NCBI GenBank assembly: GCA_016195325.1
Contig: JACPZX010000067.1
Span: forward strand, 15,559 to 79,558
DNA length: 64,000 nucleotides
Direction: 5' to 3'
Source: Acidobacteriota bacterium
Lineage (GTDB): Bacteria; Acidobacteriota; Polarisedimenticolia; JACPZX01
The position numbers and the translations under genes are program-made. Positions within the stretch are counted from its first letter, which is position 1. Every line of letters starts with the position of its first letter. This document shows, one piece after another, positions 33,294 to 50,489 of the stretch. Under the pieces are notes generated by a model. It was not told where the DNA came from. It did no database searches and saw only the letters and a program-made list of their open reading frames with translations.

Positions 33294-33349
33294 GCGGCGC
33301 ACTATAGGCCAGCCGCGCGCGGATGTGGGCGGGATAGTGAAGGGCGATC

Positions 33350-34822
33350 TCAGTGCTTGATCTGCTCCCAGTACTTGTAGAAGGAGAACTCGGGCGAGTT
33401 CTCGCGCGTGTGGCAGGCGTAACAGACGCGCGGGGCGACGCGCCCGTACCCCTGCCTCGAAGTGTCCTGGATGTGCGCGCCGGCGATGCCGTGGCACGCC
33501 TCGCACTGGACGTTGGCGAGGGCGGGGGTGGCCGTGTTCGTCTGGAATCCTTCGGCGGTGCCGTAGCCCGTCACGTGGCACTTCACGCACTCGGGGTTGA
33601 AGTCCTGCGTGGCCTTCACGAGCGTCTGCATGGCGCTCGCGTGACGGCTCTCCGTCCACACTCGATAGGCGTCGTGGTGACAGTCCTTGCAGGCGGCGGT
33701 GCCGAGGTACTTGCGGGCCGCCGTCGGCGACTCGGGGGGCGGAAGCGCCAGCCGCGCCGACGCGGCCGACGGGGCCGGCGCGCTCGCCGCGGCCGCGTTC
33801 CTCATGGCGTCGTTCACGCGCACGAGCGTCGACTGGACCATCTCCTGGAGCTTCGGCTCCTCGGGGAAGCGCTTCGTGAGGTGAATGACGCTCGCCCGGA
33901 GCTGCTTGATCTTCGTGCCGTCGAGGTAGACGCGGATCTCTCCGAGCCGCTTCCCCTCGTTCCCCGGGTAGAAGACCTTGATGCCGCCGATCTCCTCGAT
34001 CTCGGTCATCGTCAGGCGATCGCCGAACCCCGCCGCCGCGATCTGGATGCTCCCCCCCGCGGCCTGGGCCACCCTGAGGAGATCCTGCGGGCTCAGATTG
34101 GCGAGGAGGACGACGAGATCCGCCTTTCCGTTCAGCTCGGCCGTGAAGCGCCGGGCCTGATCGGCCGGGTCGCGGCTGACGACGATCCGGCCGTCCGTCG
34201 CCGTGCGGGCGAGGAGCGAGTTGTACTGCGAGAGGGCGAGGAAGGCGACGCGGATCGATTTCCCGGACGGCAGATCGAAGGACTTCACGACGTACGGAGG
34301 AAGGAATGTCCTCTCGCTCCCGCGCATCGTGTACGTGGCGCTGATCGCCGGGAACGGGGCCTTCCCGAAGAGATCCGCGTAGGCGTCGAGGCCGCCGGCC
34401 AGCTCGCTGTCGCCGATGCCGACGACGTCGTAGTTCATCCGGGTGAGGCCGTCGACGTAGGCTCCCGTCTTGATCTTCCCCGCCTCGTCGAAGGTCGACG
34501 CGAAATCGCCGAGCTCCATCATGACGACGCGCGACTGCGGAAAGGTCTTCTTGAGAAGGTCTATGTAGCCGGCCCGACGGGCCAGTCCCCCCGCGGGGTT
34601 GTGCGGTCACCCACAGGGCTCGATGTACCCGGCGACCTTCGCCGTGAACTCAAGGATGAGGTCGGGGGTGTCCCCGGGAATGACGAGCGGCCCTTCATCG
34701 GCGCCGAGGAGCACGGGCTGCGCGGGCTGTGAGGGCTGGGTCGAGGGGTCCTGGGCCGAGGCGGCGGTCACCGCGAGGAAGAGCGCGACGACGGCGAGCG
34801 TGAGGACGAGTCTGCGCATCAT
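33350..34822 (-). pseudogene. secreted 5'-nucleotidase-like (degenerate metallophosphoesterase) + tetrahaem cytochrome c fusion, interrupted by one in-frame TGA (34607-34609): selenoprotein candidate or pseudogene
   Basis: Signal peptide MMRRLVLTLAVVALFLAVTAASAQ...ILEFTAKVAGYIEPCG-TGA-PHNPAGGLARRAGYIDLLKK...MELGDF...MNYDVVGIGDSELAGG...PFPAISATY aligns with UshA motifs NDHHGH / GGYAAQ / LLSGGD / MNLVGYDAMAIGNHEFD / FPLLSANI. The C-terminal domain has four CxxCH motifs (CKDCHH, CVKCH, CEACH, CYACH). The segments 34607-34822 and 33350-34522 are in the same frame. Confidence 0.55.
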
Positions 34823-34898
34823 GGAGGCGTGATTATAGGAACGCGCCGCCTGGGGCGCAAACGCGGCGGCCGCCGAGGCCTGTGTTAGGCTCGGCGCC

Positions 34899-46412: not shown

Positions 46413-47222
46413 TCAACCGCCTCCCCCCCGCCCTGAAGCGTAGTGCGCCGCGATCGCCGCGACGAGCGCCGGCACCGTGAACTCCGCCGGCAGGATCGCG
46501 GGGGACACCCCCCGCGCCAGAAGATCGGCGGCGGTGACGGGGCCGATCGCCGCCGCGATCGAGCCCCTGGCCCCCGCGAGATCGCGCGGCGCCAGGGCGT
46601 CGAGGAAGTTCGACACGGTCGACGACGACGTGAAGGTGATGACGAGGCGATCCCCCGCGCGCTGCCTCAGCGCCGCGAGCGCGACGGCCGACGGCTCGCA
46701 GCGCAGCGTCCGGTAGACGGGCACTACGTCGACGCGCCCCCCCTGCGCGCGGAGCGCGTCGGGCAGCACGTCGCGGGCCTTCGTGGCGCGCGCGAGGAGG
46801 AAGCGCTTCCCCGCGACGGTCTCCCCGCGCAGCGCCTCGAGGATCCCCTCGGCATGAAAACTGTCCGGGACGACGCGGACCTCGACCCCTCTCCCCTCGA
46901 GCGCCCGCGCCGTCGCCGGCCCGATCGCCGCGACGCGCGCGCGGGAGAGAACCTCCCACCCCAGGCTCAGCGCCGCCAGGCGACGACCGACCGCGTCGAC
47001 GCCGTTCGCGCTTGTGAAGATCGCCCAATCGTACGCCGCGGCGTCATGGAGCGCCGTGTCGGCGGGGAGCCAGTCGTCGGGGTCGGCGAAGCGAAGGGCC
47101 GGCGAGAGGAGGATTTCTGCGCCGAGGGCCGCGAGGGGCCGGGCCATCTCGTCGGCGGCCTCGCGGGCGCGCGTGACGACGACGGCGACTCCCCGGAGCG
47201 GCCCGTCAGGCGCCGGCGGCAC
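46413..47222 (-). CDS. hemD: uroporphyrinogen-III synthase
   Basis: 269 aa. VVVTRAREAADEMARPLAALGAEIL fits the HemD fold with two half-domain repeats. Operon context is hemA-hemC-hemD. Confidence 0.8.
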   Translation of the reverse strand: MPPAPDGPLRGVAVVVTRAREAADEMARPLAALGAEILLSPALRFADPDDWLPADTALHDAAAYDWAIFTSANGVDAVGRRLAALSLGWEVLSRARVAAIGPATARALEGRGVEVRVVPDSFHAEGILEALRGETVAGKRFLLARATKARDVLPDALRAQGGRVDVVPVYRTLRCEPSAVALAALRQRAGDRLVITFTSSSTVSNFLDALAPRDLAGARGSIAAAIGPVTAADLLARGVSPAILPAEFTVPALVAAIAAHYASGRGGGG

Positions 47223-48168
47223 GTTCCACCGCGGCGAGTATCAGCGAGGCGCCGCGCTCGACGGCCTCGGCCGCGGCCTCGGCGCCGACGCCGGCGGCGT
47301 CCGCGGCGCGCCCGCGGGCCTCCACCCGGATCATCGTCCCGCCGTCCGGATCACAGACGACCCCCGAGATCGAAAGGGCGTCGCCTCTCACCGTGGCGAA
47401 CGCGGCGACGGGAACCTGGCATCCTCCGCCGAGCCTCGCGAGGAAGGCCCGCTCCGCGAGGACGGCGGCCGCGGTGTCTGGGTCGTCGAGAGTCCCGACC
47501 GCGGTCTGGACCCACCCCTCCTCGTCCCGGGTCTCGATCGCGAGCGCCCCCTGCCCGACGGCGGGGAGGCAGATCTCGAGAGGGAGATGGGTGAACCATG
47601 GCTGCATGAGGCCGAGCCGCCGCAGTCCCGCCGCCGCGAGGACGACGGCGTCGACGTCTCCCTCCCGCATCCGGCGGAGCCGGGTGTCGACGTTGCCGCG
47701 GAGCGGAACGTACGAGAGATCGCCGCGCCGATGGCGGAGCTGCGAGACGCGGCGAGGGCTGCCGGTGCCGACCCGCGCCCCCTGCGGCAGCGCATCGAAC
47801 TCGAGGGGCTCCCGCGCGGCGAGCACGTCCCGGGGGTCCTCGCGCGGCGGCACCGCCGCGATGCGGAGCCCACCGGGGATCTCGGTCGGCAGGTCCTTCA
47901 TCGAGTGGACGGCCGCGTCGATGCGCCCGGCGGCAAGCGCCTCCTCGATCTCCTTGACGAAGATCCCCTTCCCCGCCGTCTGCGCCGACGGGGGCGCCGC
48001 CCACTCCTGCTGGCGGTCCCCGGTCGTCCTGATCAAGGTGATCTCGACCTTCAGCCCAGGATTGCGCGAGGCGATCGCGTCGCGCATCATCCCGCTCTGC
48101 CGCAGCGCGAGCGGGCTCCCGCGGCTCCCGATGACGAGCGTGCGGCCGGACGGACTCTCGCCGGCCAT
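47206..48168 (-). CDS. hemC: hydroxymethylbilane synthase (porphobilinogen deaminase)
   Basis: RTLVIGSRGSPLALRQ...HSMKDLPTE...GTGSPRR...GGGCQVPV are canonical HemC motifs, including the cofactor Cys. Confidence 0.9.
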   Translation of the reverse strand: MAGESPSGRTLVIGSRGSPLALRQSGMMRDAIASRNPGLKVEITLIRTTGDRQQEWAAPPSAQTAGKGIFVKEIEEALAAGRIDAAVHSMKDLPTEIPGGLRIAAVPPREDPRDVLAAREPLEFDALPQGARVGTGSPRRVSQLRHRRGDLSYVPLRGNVDTRLRRMREGDVDAVVLAAAGLRRLGLMQPWFTHLPLEICLPAVGQGALAIETRDEEGWVQTAVGTLDDPDTAAAVLAERAFLARLGGGCQVPVAAFATVRGDALSISGVVCDPDGGTMIRVEARGRAADAAGVGAEAAAEAVERGASLILAAVERAAGA

Positions 48169-49496
48169 CAGGCGTCGTCCTCCGGGGAGGCGTCGAGGGC
48201 CGGCGCCGGGCCGTTTCCGTTCAGCTCGGGGGCCGCCTCGCCCAGCTCGAAGAGCTGGCGCGTGATCTTCACGAGGTCGTGGCCGTCCCGGCTCTCGAGA
48301 GCGTGCTTGAGCTCGACCGTCGGGTGGTGGAGGAGCTTGTTCACGACCGACGAGACGATCTCCTCGATGGCGTGCTCCTGTCTCGGGTCGAGATCCCCGA
48401 GCTTCGCGCGGTGGCGCTTCAGCTCGGCCGACGCGATCTCGCCGAAGCGGCGCCGCAGGTCGACGATCGTCGGCTTCACCTCGAGGGAGCGCAGCCACGC
48501 GGCGTATCCCAGGACCTCCTCGTCGACCATCGCCTCCGCGATCGCCGCCTCGCGCATCCTCTCGGCGAGCCCCGTGTCCACCACGGTCTGCAGATCGTCG
48601 ATGTTGTAGAGGTAGAGGTTGTCGAGATCGTTCAACCGGGGATCGACGTCGCGCGGCACCGCGATGTCCACGACGAACAGGGGCCGGTGGCGCCTCGACT
48701 TCATGATGGCCGGGCCGTCCTCCGCGCGGAGGACGTAGTGCGGGGCCGCCGTCGACGAGATGATGATGTCGACCCTGGAGACGTACTCGAGGTACCGGTC
48801 GAAGTTGATCGCCTCCCCCTGAAACTCGCGCGCGAGCTCGACGGCCTTGTGGTACGTGCGGTTGGCGACGAAGACCCCCTTCACCCCCTGCTTCATGAGA
48901 TGCCGCGCCGCGAGCTCGCTCATCTCCCCCGCGCCCAGGATCATGATCGTCCGCCCCTCGAGCGAGCCGAAGATCTTCGCCGCGAGCTCGGCGGCGGCGT
49001 AGGCGATGGAGACGGGGTTCTTCGCGATCTGCGTCTCGGTCCTCACGCGCTTCGCGCACGAGAAGGCGCGCTGCATGAGCGACGAGAGGGCGGGGCCCAC
49101 CGTCCCGGCCTCGACCGCGACGGCGTACGCCTCCTTCACCTGCCAGAGGATCTGCGGCTCCCCGACGATCATCGAGTCGAGGCTCGACGCCACACGGAAG
49201 ACGTGCCGCGCCGCGTCGAGATCGACCATGCGGTACGCGTGGTCGTCAAGGACGCCGATCTGCCCGGGGCGCCGGGAGCCGATGAAGCTCCGGATCGCCT
49301 CCCCGGCCTCGTCGACGCCTCCCGCGCTCGCGATCACCTCGATGCGGTTGCACGTCGAGAGGATGATCGCCTCCCGCATCGACGGCATCCTCGCGAGCTC
49401 GGGGAGGGCCGCCCCCAGCTCCTGCCGCGGGAAGTGGAGGCGCTCGCGCACGTCGACGGGCGCGCTCCTGTGGTTGAGGCCGACCAGGTACAGCAT
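48168..49496 (-). CDS. hemA: glutamyl-tRNA reductase
   Basis: MLYLVGLNHRSAPVDVRE...STCNRIEV (catalytic Cys)...ILGAGEMSE is a full-length GluTR. Confidence 0.9.
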   Translation of the reverse strand: MLYLVGLNHRSAPVDVRERLHFPRQELGAALPELARMPSMREAIILSTCNRIEVIASAGGVDEAGEAIRSFIGSRRPGQIGVLDDHAYRMVDLDAARHVFRVASSLDSMIVGEPQILWQVKEAYAVAVEAGTVGPALSSLMQRAFSCAKRVRTETQIAKNPVSIAYAAAELAAKIFGSLEGRTIMILGAGEMSELAARHLMKQGVKGVFVANRTYHKAVELAREFQGEAINFDRYLEYVSRVDIIISSTAAPHYVLRAEDGPAIMKSRRHRPLFVVDIAVPRDVDPRLNDLDNLYLYNIDDLQTVVDTGLAERMREAAIAEAMVDEEVLGYAAWLRSLEVKPTIVDLRRRFGEIASAELKRHRAKLGDLDPRQEHAIEEIVSSVVNKLLHHPTVELKHALESRDGHDLVKITRQLFELGEAAPELNGNGPAPALDASPEDDA

Positions 49497-50293
49497 CACG
49501 CGCCGATCCCGATCATCCGGAGGATGATCGCGATTAAGCCGATGATGGACAGGTAGGCCGAGAGCCTGCCGCGCCACCTGCCGGCGAAGACGCGGTCGTA
49601 GATGACGACGGCGAAGAGAACCCACGCGAGGAGAGCCCACCGCTCGCGCGCGACCCACGAGAAATCCCCATGGGTGTAGCGGTTCGTGAGCGCGCCCGTG
49701 AAGACGACGAGGGTCAGGAAGGCGAAGCCCCATCCGAGCGACATGTAGCTGAGCCGATCGCACCGCTCGAGGCTCGGGAGCGCCCCGAAGAACCGCCCCG
49801 GCCTGTGGTTCTTGAGCCCCTTCTCCTGGATGAGGTAGACGATGCTCGTGCCGAACGTGAGGAAGAGGAAAGCGACGCCGAGAACCGCCGGCACGACGTG
49901 CACCGCGCGCAGCGACACCTTCCACCCCTCGGTCACGCGCGACGGCTCGTCGGGGATCAGCGTCGTGATCGCCATCAGCGCGACGACGACCGGCAGGATG
50001 ATGATGCCGAGGAACTCGATGCGGAACTTGAAGTGCGCGAGGAGGTAGACGGAGATCGCGGCGAAGGCGACGAGGAAGAGGATCTCCTTCAGCGTGAGAT
50101 CGGGAACCCCCCCCTCCTCGAGCGTCCGCGCGACGAGCCCGCCGAAGTGGAGGACGAGCCCGGGGATCGCGAGGCGCGGGAGCCACGGGACCATCTCGCG
50201 GCGGGCCGACAGGAGGACCCAGACCGAGAGGACCATCGCGACGGCGTAGAGAACGCCGGCGCCCAGGAAGAACCAGCCGCTGGCGTGGAGCAT
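49496..50293 (-). CDS. hemX: cytochrome c assembly (CcsA-like) membrane protein, HemX-type
   Basis: 265 aa with 8 TM helices. The W-rich motif GWGFAFLTLVVFTGALTNRYTHGDFSW resembles CcsA/ResC. Its position immediately upstream of hemA matches the hemAXCD arrangement. Confidence 0.65.
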   Translation of the reverse strand: MLHASGWFFLGAGVLYAVAMVLSVWVLLSARREMVPWLPRLAIPGLVLHFGGLVARTLEEGGVPDLTLKEILFLVAFAAISVYLLAHFKFRIEFLGIIILPVVVALMAITTLIPDEPSRVTEGWKVSLRAVHVVPAVLGVAFLFLTFGTSIVYLIQEKGLKNHRPGRFFGALPSLERCDRLSYMSLGWGFAFLTLVVFTGALTNRYTHGDFSWVARERWALLAWVLFAVVIYDRVFAGRWRGRLSAYLSIIGLIAIILRMIGIGA

Positions 50294-50489
50294 GTTTCCT
50301 CGCGGGTTTCGACGGTGGACGGGGTCCGGCGAAGACTATCACCGTGGACATTGCCTGTTCCATGCCACGCGGAGACGCGCCCCTTCCGGGCGGCGGCGGG
50401 CGTCGGATCGAGGCAAGCTGCGTCATCTCGCGCACCGCCGGGAGTCCTCCGCGCCTGATCCGCCGCCGCGCGTTACAATCGCCCTCCTC

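Follow-up and report, generated by a model that had tools for sequence, protein, structure and literature searches.

Among the selenoprotein families of prokaryotes, published surveys list an 'UshA-like protein (COG0737 / NF041198), CxU', which they follow back to the Global Ocean Sampling analysis of 2008 (PMC2398784, PMC9312934, PMC13188914). The corresponding NCBIfam model, NF041198 'UshA-like (seleno)protein' (UshA_like_PCGU), describes proteins in which a 5'-nucleotidase-type N-domain is followed by a c554-like cytochrome C-domain, and in which selenocysteine (Sec, U) lies in a P-C-G-U motif in the loop after strand 1. The subject of this study is a gene on the minus strand, at 33350..34822, of a 64-kb stretch of acidobacterial DNA (64,000 nucleotides of contig JACPZX010000067.1, from a metagenome-assembled genome, MAG; 'the window' in what follows), whose reading frame is interrupted by a single TGA. 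We put at roughly 90% the probability that this is one intact gene encoding a secreted selenoprotein, and that the protein belongs to the UshA-like PCGU family as a divergent acidobacterial member. The first-pass annotation of the window had presented the Cys-Gly-Sec site as something unusual; P-C-G-U is, however, already the name-giving motif of NF041198 and is entered as CxU in reviews. The family is already catalogued and the site is no novelty.

When the two parts of the frame are joined, the protein matches NF041198 with E = 6.5e-69, in two stretches of the hidden Markov model (HMM), the better of which aligns protein residues 304-481 with profile positions 346-518 of 519. It has the NF041198 architecture of an UshA-type domain with a C-terminal multihaem c554-like domain, and it carries P-C-G-U/C followed by x5-GG-x-x-RR in the register found in 75/75 aligned family sequences. 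Also shared with the family are the position of P-C-G-U after strand 1, the alternation of Sec and Cys at the same column, and a putative selenocysteine insertion sequence (SECIS) lying over the GGLARRA codons. The difference is in the metal ligands: where many members retain D-x-H-G, G-D, H and G-H, the corresponding residues of the window protein are K-V-A-G, G-D, N and G-F. A second NCBIfam model, NF049981 'UshA-like (seleno)protein family 2', likewise describes an UshA-like fold with Sec near the N-terminus, but its motif is CxxU and not CxU, and the model, 262 positions long, is without a cytochrome domain. Membership of that family was rejected for the window protein (34.8 bits against a cutoff of 140).

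Other described systems resemble parts of the protein. The calcineurin-like dimetal 5'-nucleotidases and 2',3'-cyclic phosphodiesterases (E. coli UshA, CD73, YfkN) share the fold of its N-domain, the H-x-x-L-E-P...GG(V/L)ARR pattern and G-D; the window protein differs from them in having Asp-Ser for the catalytic Asn-His, in the loss of the His of motifs I, IV and V, in having a tetrahaem cytochrome as its C-domain, and in its added Cys-Gly-Sec. SoxB thiosulfohydrolase is a dimanganese enzyme that acts on protein-bound sulfur species in a haem-rich sulfur-compound pathway. It has the same fold as the window protein (Foldseek E about 1e-16; profile 4e-6) and is periplasmic, as the window protein is predicted to be. 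The window protein was nevertheless rejected as a SoxB (TIGR04486, E = 0.15; dimanganese ligands absent), and neighbour comparison together with an NCBIfam scan of the window models revealed no sox genes near the selenoprotein gene. MccSep (ExtKL) is a pentahaem c-type cytochrome selenoprotein in which Sec and Cys reduce polysulfide (PMC13510729, PDB 9wt8). It resembles the window protein in being a periplasmic multihaem c-type protein with one Sec and a Cys partner, in having both Sec and Cys homologues, and in the placing of the SECIS within ~30 nt of the UGA; its Sec, however, lies in the cytochrome domain beside a Cys-ligated haem, whereas that of the window protein lies in a separate phosphoesterase-fold domain. 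Membership of MccSep/ExtKL was also rejected (NF040886, 13.7 bits against a cutoff of 250; 9wt8, E = 0.009), there being no homology outside the haem motifs.

The gene begins with an ATG at 34822-34820 and comprises 490 codons including Sec72, with a terminal TGA at 33350-33352. The sole internal stop of this frame is the TGA at 34607-34609 (minus strand), which is codon 72 and stands in the motif E68-P-C70-G71-U72; the frame reads ...FTAKVAGYIEPCG up to the TGA and PHNPAGGLARRAGYIDLL... beyond it (also written FTAKVAGYIEPCG-TGA-PHNPAGGLARRAGY, or in short GYIEPCG-TGA-PHNPAGGLARR). A Sec-type signal peptide is predicted at residues 1-23 (34754..34822, minus strand) by inspection of the sequence, MMRRLVLTLAVVALFLAVTAASA followed by QD, with likely cleavage between A-S-A and Q; the AlphaFold2 model has a helix at residues 2-21 and then a disordered linker. 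Both the start and the architecture are identical in four relatives (L081, L083, L084 and L086). The first-pass annotation had proposed a single gene split only by the TGA, with the signal peptide on its N-terminal segment, and both proposals stand, the second as a prediction from sequence and model. The GenBank entry covers 33350-34522 only, under the name hypothetical protein HY049_12850 (390 aa), in an Acidobacteria MAG.

Orthologues bear directly on the identity of codon 72. In a protein search, all 24 full-length homologues had Cys at the TGA column, in the context E-P-C-G-C-P-x-N-P-A-G-G. We then read the codon itself in contigs representing one genome per species, where the column was readable at 75 sites in 80 loci: 45 had TGA, 21 TGC and 9 TGT, and no other stop codon occurred there. 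The first-pass annotation had asked whether orthologues carry Cys at this position; they do so at 30/75 sites, with TGC or TGT, and have TGA at the rest. The phyla sampled by the 80 loci include Acidobacteriota, Krumholzibacteriota, Planctomycetota, Nitrospirota, Gemmatimonadota, Zixibacteria and Desulfobacterota/deltaproteobacteria. TGA is kept in the closest relatives, with 89% and 67% protein identity, which come from separate soil metagenomes (JGI 3300012930, 3300015264, 3300019789; ENA ERZ27253149). Across the 32 codons upstream of the TGA, comparison with two relatives gave synonymous to non-synonymous ratios of 9:2 and 11:7, an excess of synonymous change from which we conclude that the short N-terminal piece is translated and that selection on it is purifying. 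Purifying selection is evident on both flanks of the TGA, and the frame has no further lesion. The window, L081 and L084 do not differ in the 31 nt directly after the TGA, but several synonymous changes fall in the 36 nt that precede it. We conclude that, almost certainly, this TGA does encode selenocysteine.

A hairpin, CUGGCCC-GUC-GGGCCGG, lies 22-38 nt after the UGA (34569..34585, minus strand), over the codons for L-A-R-R-A. Published rules for bacterial SECIS elements (PMC13188914 Fig. 2) ask for an apical loop 3-9 nt long with G among its first two positions, 4-16 bp in the upper stem, a UGA-to-loop distance of 16-37 nt, and a minimum free energy of -7.5 kcal/mol or lower. The hairpin falls within all four limits, with the 3-nt loop GUC, a stem of 7 bp (CUGGCCC/GGGCCGG), a spacing of 28 nt, and a folding energy of -11.9 kcal/mol when taken alone (z = -2.6). 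Because the DNA is 70% GC, only a comparative test is meaningful, and because the Cys forms also encode G-G-L-A-R-R-A, the same nine-pair register was compared in 45 TGA forms and 21 Cys forms, with 500 shuffles of each. Standard pairs filled 86.2% of cells in the TGA forms and 57.7% in the Cys forms, and cells changed on both sides numbered 38 and 11 respectively. None of the 500 shuffles matched the observed percentage paired in the TGA forms, whereas 488/500 did so in the Cys forms; registers slid out of phase gave 33-51% and 28-46% paired cells respectively. The mean number of pairs, out of nine, was 7.76 in the TGA forms and 5.19 in the Cys forms (Mann-Whitney p = 9e-7). The compensatory changes in the TGA forms are synonymous, for example Ala GCC/GCA/GCU/GCG with Arg NGG/CGU/CGA/CGC, and the apical loop is GGC, GGA or GUC (G-G/U-N) in 43/45 of them. 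When only sequences with a peptide of exactly GG[LV]ARRA were considered, the means were 7.8 (TGA, n=32) and 6.4 (Cys, n=5; p = 0.04).

Judged by this covariation, the hairpin is a SECIS under selection in TGA forms only, and not a by-product of the peptide. The position and 7-bp stem of a SECIS-compatible hairpin, as first proposed, are thus borne out, and to them are added agreement with the published rules and covariation confined to the TGA forms. One Cys form stands apart. The closest species-representative relative, an Acidobacteriota MAG with TGC at the column, still forms all 9 bp of the hairpin in the SECIS register (L001:3187-3255), whereas the remaining Cys forms with the same peptide have 5-7 of the nine pairs. 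The hairpin of L001 may be a fossil SECIS left after a recent replacement of Sec by Cys.

When a ribosome arrives at a UGA that bacteria decode as Sec, SelB-GTP attaches to the hairpin with its cargo of Sec-tRNA(Sec), and Sec is inserted. Applied to this gene, UGA codon 72 would not be read as a stop during translation; the hairpin 22-38 nt 3' of it, within the Leu-Ala-Arg-Arg-Ala codons, would act as a bacterial SECIS and recruit SelB with Sec-tRNA(Sec), and selenocysteine would be inserted near Cys70 to give C-G-U. The same mRNA carries a second UGA, the terminator at 33352-33350, so that one UGA would be recoded and the other would terminate. The hairpin is found 3' of the recoded UGA only, and the terminal TGA, which no hairpin follows, would end translation. 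The product would then be exported by way of its Sec-type signal peptide and loaded with four c-type haems.

Among other ways of reading the locus, the one that survives best is that the UGA is decoded as something other than Sec, either by near-cognate read-through (Trp or Cys) or under a reassigned code. It gains some support from the fact that Sec machinery was found nowhere in the 64-kb window. Against it, the selenoprotein gene itself terminates at TGA, and when all stops in the window that are open on both sides were scanned, only this TGA had a sense-strand codon-position GC signature on both flanks; for these two reasons we take the genetic code to be the standard one. Furthermore, Sec is conventionally recognised by Cys/TGA alternation in company with a hairpin that obeys the SECIS rules (PMC13188914), and we regard non-Sec decoding as very unlikely.

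Rather less probable again is that the locus makes two products, a secreted peptide of 71 residues and a 390-residue protein started at ATG 34522, even though gene callers split every TGA-form locus in this way. The 390-aa protein would have no signal peptide and yet four CxxCH motifs, and the attachment of haem at such motifs requires export (cytochrome c maturation). It would start inside the phosphoesterase fold, without strand 1 and helix 1, whereas every Cys form is one unbroken polypeptide, 470-510 aa in length. In addition, the 84 nt from the TGA to ATG 34522, which would go untranslated, encode GGLARRAGY, the most conserved motif of the family.

A recent pseudogene, in which a Cys-type gene has suffered a TGC/TGT to TGA nonsense mutation, had been allowed for in the first-pass annotation. 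Cys forms do occur in the same acidobacterial clade (L001, P0005-P0030), and a single transversion yields TGA. The TGA is nevertheless common to the 89% and 67% relatives despite many synonymous differences around it, and it is present at 45/75 orthologue sites across phyla; selection is purifying on both sides without another lesion, and the hairpin is selected specifically in the TGA forms. We give a pseudogene very little credence. Least credible of all is a sequencing or assembly error that hides a true TGC, TGT or TGG, which the first-pass annotation had also raised and to which a window from a MAG is open in principle, given that a separately built Logan assembly of SRR12113409 (3.9-kb contig) equals the window, TGA included, though from a single run and perhaps from the same reads, and that the TGA recurs in independently assembled relatives, in the populations of other samples listed above.

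The N-terminal part of the protein, about residues 54-346 (33785..34663, minus strand), forms a metallophosphoesterase-fold domain of the UshA/5'-nucleotidase/SoxB type with degenerate ligands. The assignment made in the first-pass annotation is confirmed by two routes. A profile of the family searched against PDB sequences found proteins ranging from 5'-nucleotidases (E = 2e-26) to SoxB (4e-6), with YfkN-type cyclic phosphodiesterases among them. The AlphaFold2 model (mean predicted local distance difference test score, pLDDT, 85.4; predicted template modelling score, pTM, 0.82) matched UshA, CD73, the Thermus 5'-nucleotidase, YfkN and SoxB in a Foldseek search of the PDB, over ~320 columns with E about 1e-18 to 1e-16 (entries including 1ush, 2z1a and 3gve).

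The placing of the TGA within this fold has to be revised. It had been put inside the first metal-binding motif (N-D-H-H-G), with Cys-Gly-Sec as an unusual replacement of the Asp/His ligands. This was a misplaced alignment. In the window protein, motif I (D-x-H-G) corresponds to K62-V63-A64-G65, and Sec72 belongs to the next loop, E-P-C-G-U, eight residues past the His position. Intact D-x-H-G coexists with PCGU in other family members: L056, from Gemmatimonas, has canonical motifs and reads ...VYIGDVHGKFEPCGU..., which aligns residue by residue with ...VHTNDTHAHLEPVEL... of the Thermus 5'-nucleotidase.

The metal site itself is largely gone. Both motif I ligands are lost (Asp at K62, His at A64), as are the Asn and His of motif III (G-N-H-E; D138 and S139), the His of motif IV (N242) and the His of motif V (G-H, here G265-F266; F266), while the Asp of motif II (G-D) is kept as D106. 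Only one of the five scored D/H/D/H/H ligands (residues 62, 64, 106, 242 and 266) is therefore left, and the protein lacks the dimetal phosphoesterase motif set (D-x-H, G-D, G-N-H-E, H, G-H). Neither Pfam Metallophos (PF00149) nor the C-terminal nucleotide-binding domain of 5'-nucleotidases (PF02872) matched the window protein, and the cytochrome domain takes the place of the latter. At least three of the five ligands are kept in 30/46 TGA forms compared with 3/29 Cys forms; the window protein, which is a Sec form and yet retains one ligand only, departs from this pattern.

That C-terminal domain, at residues 372-490 (33353..33709, minus strand), is of the cytochrome c554-like tetrahaem kind (PF13435, 1bvb). 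It scored 65.2 bits against a cutoff of 20.8 with Pfam PF13435 (Cytochrome_C554), and a profile search found PDB cytochrome c554 (1bvb) with E = 4e-22, in agreement with the four CxxCH haem sites read from the sequence at the outset. These sites begin at C378 (33677-33691), C412 (33575-33589), C440 (33491-33505) and C467 (33410-33424), all on the minus strand, and alignment A1 shows no variation in their Cys and His residues.

The positions that never vary within the family are C70, G71, the Sec/Cys column and the haem sites; the phosphoesterase ligands do vary. Given the constancy of C-G-U/C and of the haems, and the loss of most of the metal site in this protein, we believe that the protein is probably a periplasmic redox enzyme, in which the Cys70/Sec72 pair would be the reactive centre wired to the four haems, and that it is probably not a nucleotidase. 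By analogy with SoxB and MccSep, which are its closest analogues in function, inorganic chalcogen species are a plausible class of substrate. More broadly, and with more doubt than conviction, we suggest that the family might not consist of phosphoesterases but represent periplasmic Cys-Gly-Sec oxidoreductases of a hitherto uncharacterised class, wired to haems and built on the 5'-nucleotidase/SoxB scaffold. The acidobacterial clade would be the extreme, having discarded the ancestral dimetal site and kept just the four haems and a centre of selenenylsulfide type. The literature searched contained no functional characterisation of the UshA-like PCGU family.

Several results weigh against reading the gene as a selenoprotein of this family and function. 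First, selA, selB, selD and tRNA-Sec were all absent from the 64-kb window, which contains no tRNA of any kind. A six-frame regular-expression search of the window for SelD G-C/U-G-C-K, SelA S-G-D-K-L-L-G-G-P and the GTPase motif G-H-V-D-H-G-K-T gave no match, and an NCBIfam scan of 30 window gene models found none of the Sel families; the scanned models are housekeeping genes (a GldAFG-like ABC transporter, an ECF sigma/anti-sigma pair, the glycine cleavage system, HemD, a CcsB-like protein, RseP, UppS, TruA and CydB). Second, the 48-nt stretch that includes the hairpin folded singly no better than its shuffles (z = -0.39). Third, the hairpin overlaps a conserved peptide, and the contrast between Sec and Cys forms of identical peptide rests on five Cys sequences. 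Fourth, Rfam gave no match, either at gathering thresholds over the whole window or at E <= 10 on 34480-34680. To our knowledge Rfam holds no general bacterial SECIS model, and for that reason this null result is uninformative.

Fifth, the window gene is below the curated NF041198 cutoff, with 232.9 bits against 275. By the same method, a bona fide deltaproteobacterial member (L024) scored 348 and a Krumholzibacteriota orthologue (L014) 275.7, and further orthologues ranged from 197 to 270 (L002, 269.5; L001, 208.6). By its architecture and motif the window gene is an NF041198-type homologue outside a narrow equivalog threshold, and its 'hypothetical protein' label in GenBank follows from its falling outside that threshold. 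Finally, as regards the putative redox role, an all-against-all BLAST of flanking open reading frames (ORFs) found no conserved partner shared across the 80 loci, the neighbours showing only clade-specific housekeeping synteny (Maf, RuvX, YceG, HU, an exonuclease). With no partner gene shared, there is no operon clue to function.

The close relatives have a common gene order of amino-acid permease, Maf, selenoprotein gene, RuvX and YceG. A -10-like box, CCTATA[A/G]T, lies at 34832-34839 on the minus strand, 9 nt 5' of the selenoprotein ATG, and a second at 33301-33308, also on the minus strand, 7 nt 5' of the ATG of the downstream ruvX; no Shine-Dalgarno sequence intervenes between box and ATG in either case. 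The pattern CTATART-N6-12-RTG occurs in the window, which is ~70% GC, at these two gene starts only (three overlapping pattern matches), where 0.02 would be expected. The arrangement points to transcripts that are leaderless or nearly so, and to a promoter of its own for each of the two genes, the selenoprotein gene and ruvX.

Elsewhere in the window, HemD (uroporphyrinogen-III synthase; 46413-47240, minus strand) and a CcsB/HemX-like cytochrome c assembly protein (49496-50335, minus strand; 97.7 bits, under the cutoff of 187.6) are encoded ~12-15 kb from the gene. They are consistent with a capacity for haem synthesis and cytochrome maturation; an operon link is not evident. The window also encodes an ADOP-family permease, which fits Acidobacteria. 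The gaps left by gene calling based on GC content at third codon positions (GC3) were considered and dismissed as anything unusual, being ordinary genes inside over-long stop-to-stop ORFs.

Many database homologues of the window protein (P0001-P0004, P0012, P0015-P0020, P0023, P0026, P0031-P0041) have lengths of 345-410 aa and align with no more than the final 71-80% of the query. Four loci were examined among them (P0001-P0003); each is a TGA form that gene callers have truncated at its Sec codon, and some matches, from Candidatus Polarisedimenticolia, are named just 'multiheme c-type cytochrome'. This points to a systematic mis-annotation of the UshA-like PCGU family.

Our knowledge of how Sec is decoded is unchanged by these results. 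What they add is a divergent acidobacterial member of the family that is truncated in its annotation, SECIS covariation inside the GGLARRA codons, and the dispensability of the phosphoesterase ligands within the family. Public databases show TGA-type members as truncated proteins of 385-400 aa that look cytoplasmic and are labelled 'hypothetical' or 'multiheme cytochrome', and the NF041198 cutoff makes the curated model miss the acidobacterial clade; selenium use is therefore under-counted in soil Acidobacteriota and in several candidate phyla. A concrete biochemical hypothesis emerges from two results taken together, namely that C-G-U/C and the haems are invariant where the phosphoesterase ligands are dispensable, and that those ligands are far commoner in TGA forms. 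If a haem-wired Cys-Gly-Sec oxidoreductase is indeed what the family represents, it might reduce or oxidise an inorganic sulfur or selenium species, and would then constitute a second type of haem-dependent selenoenzyme beside MccSep.

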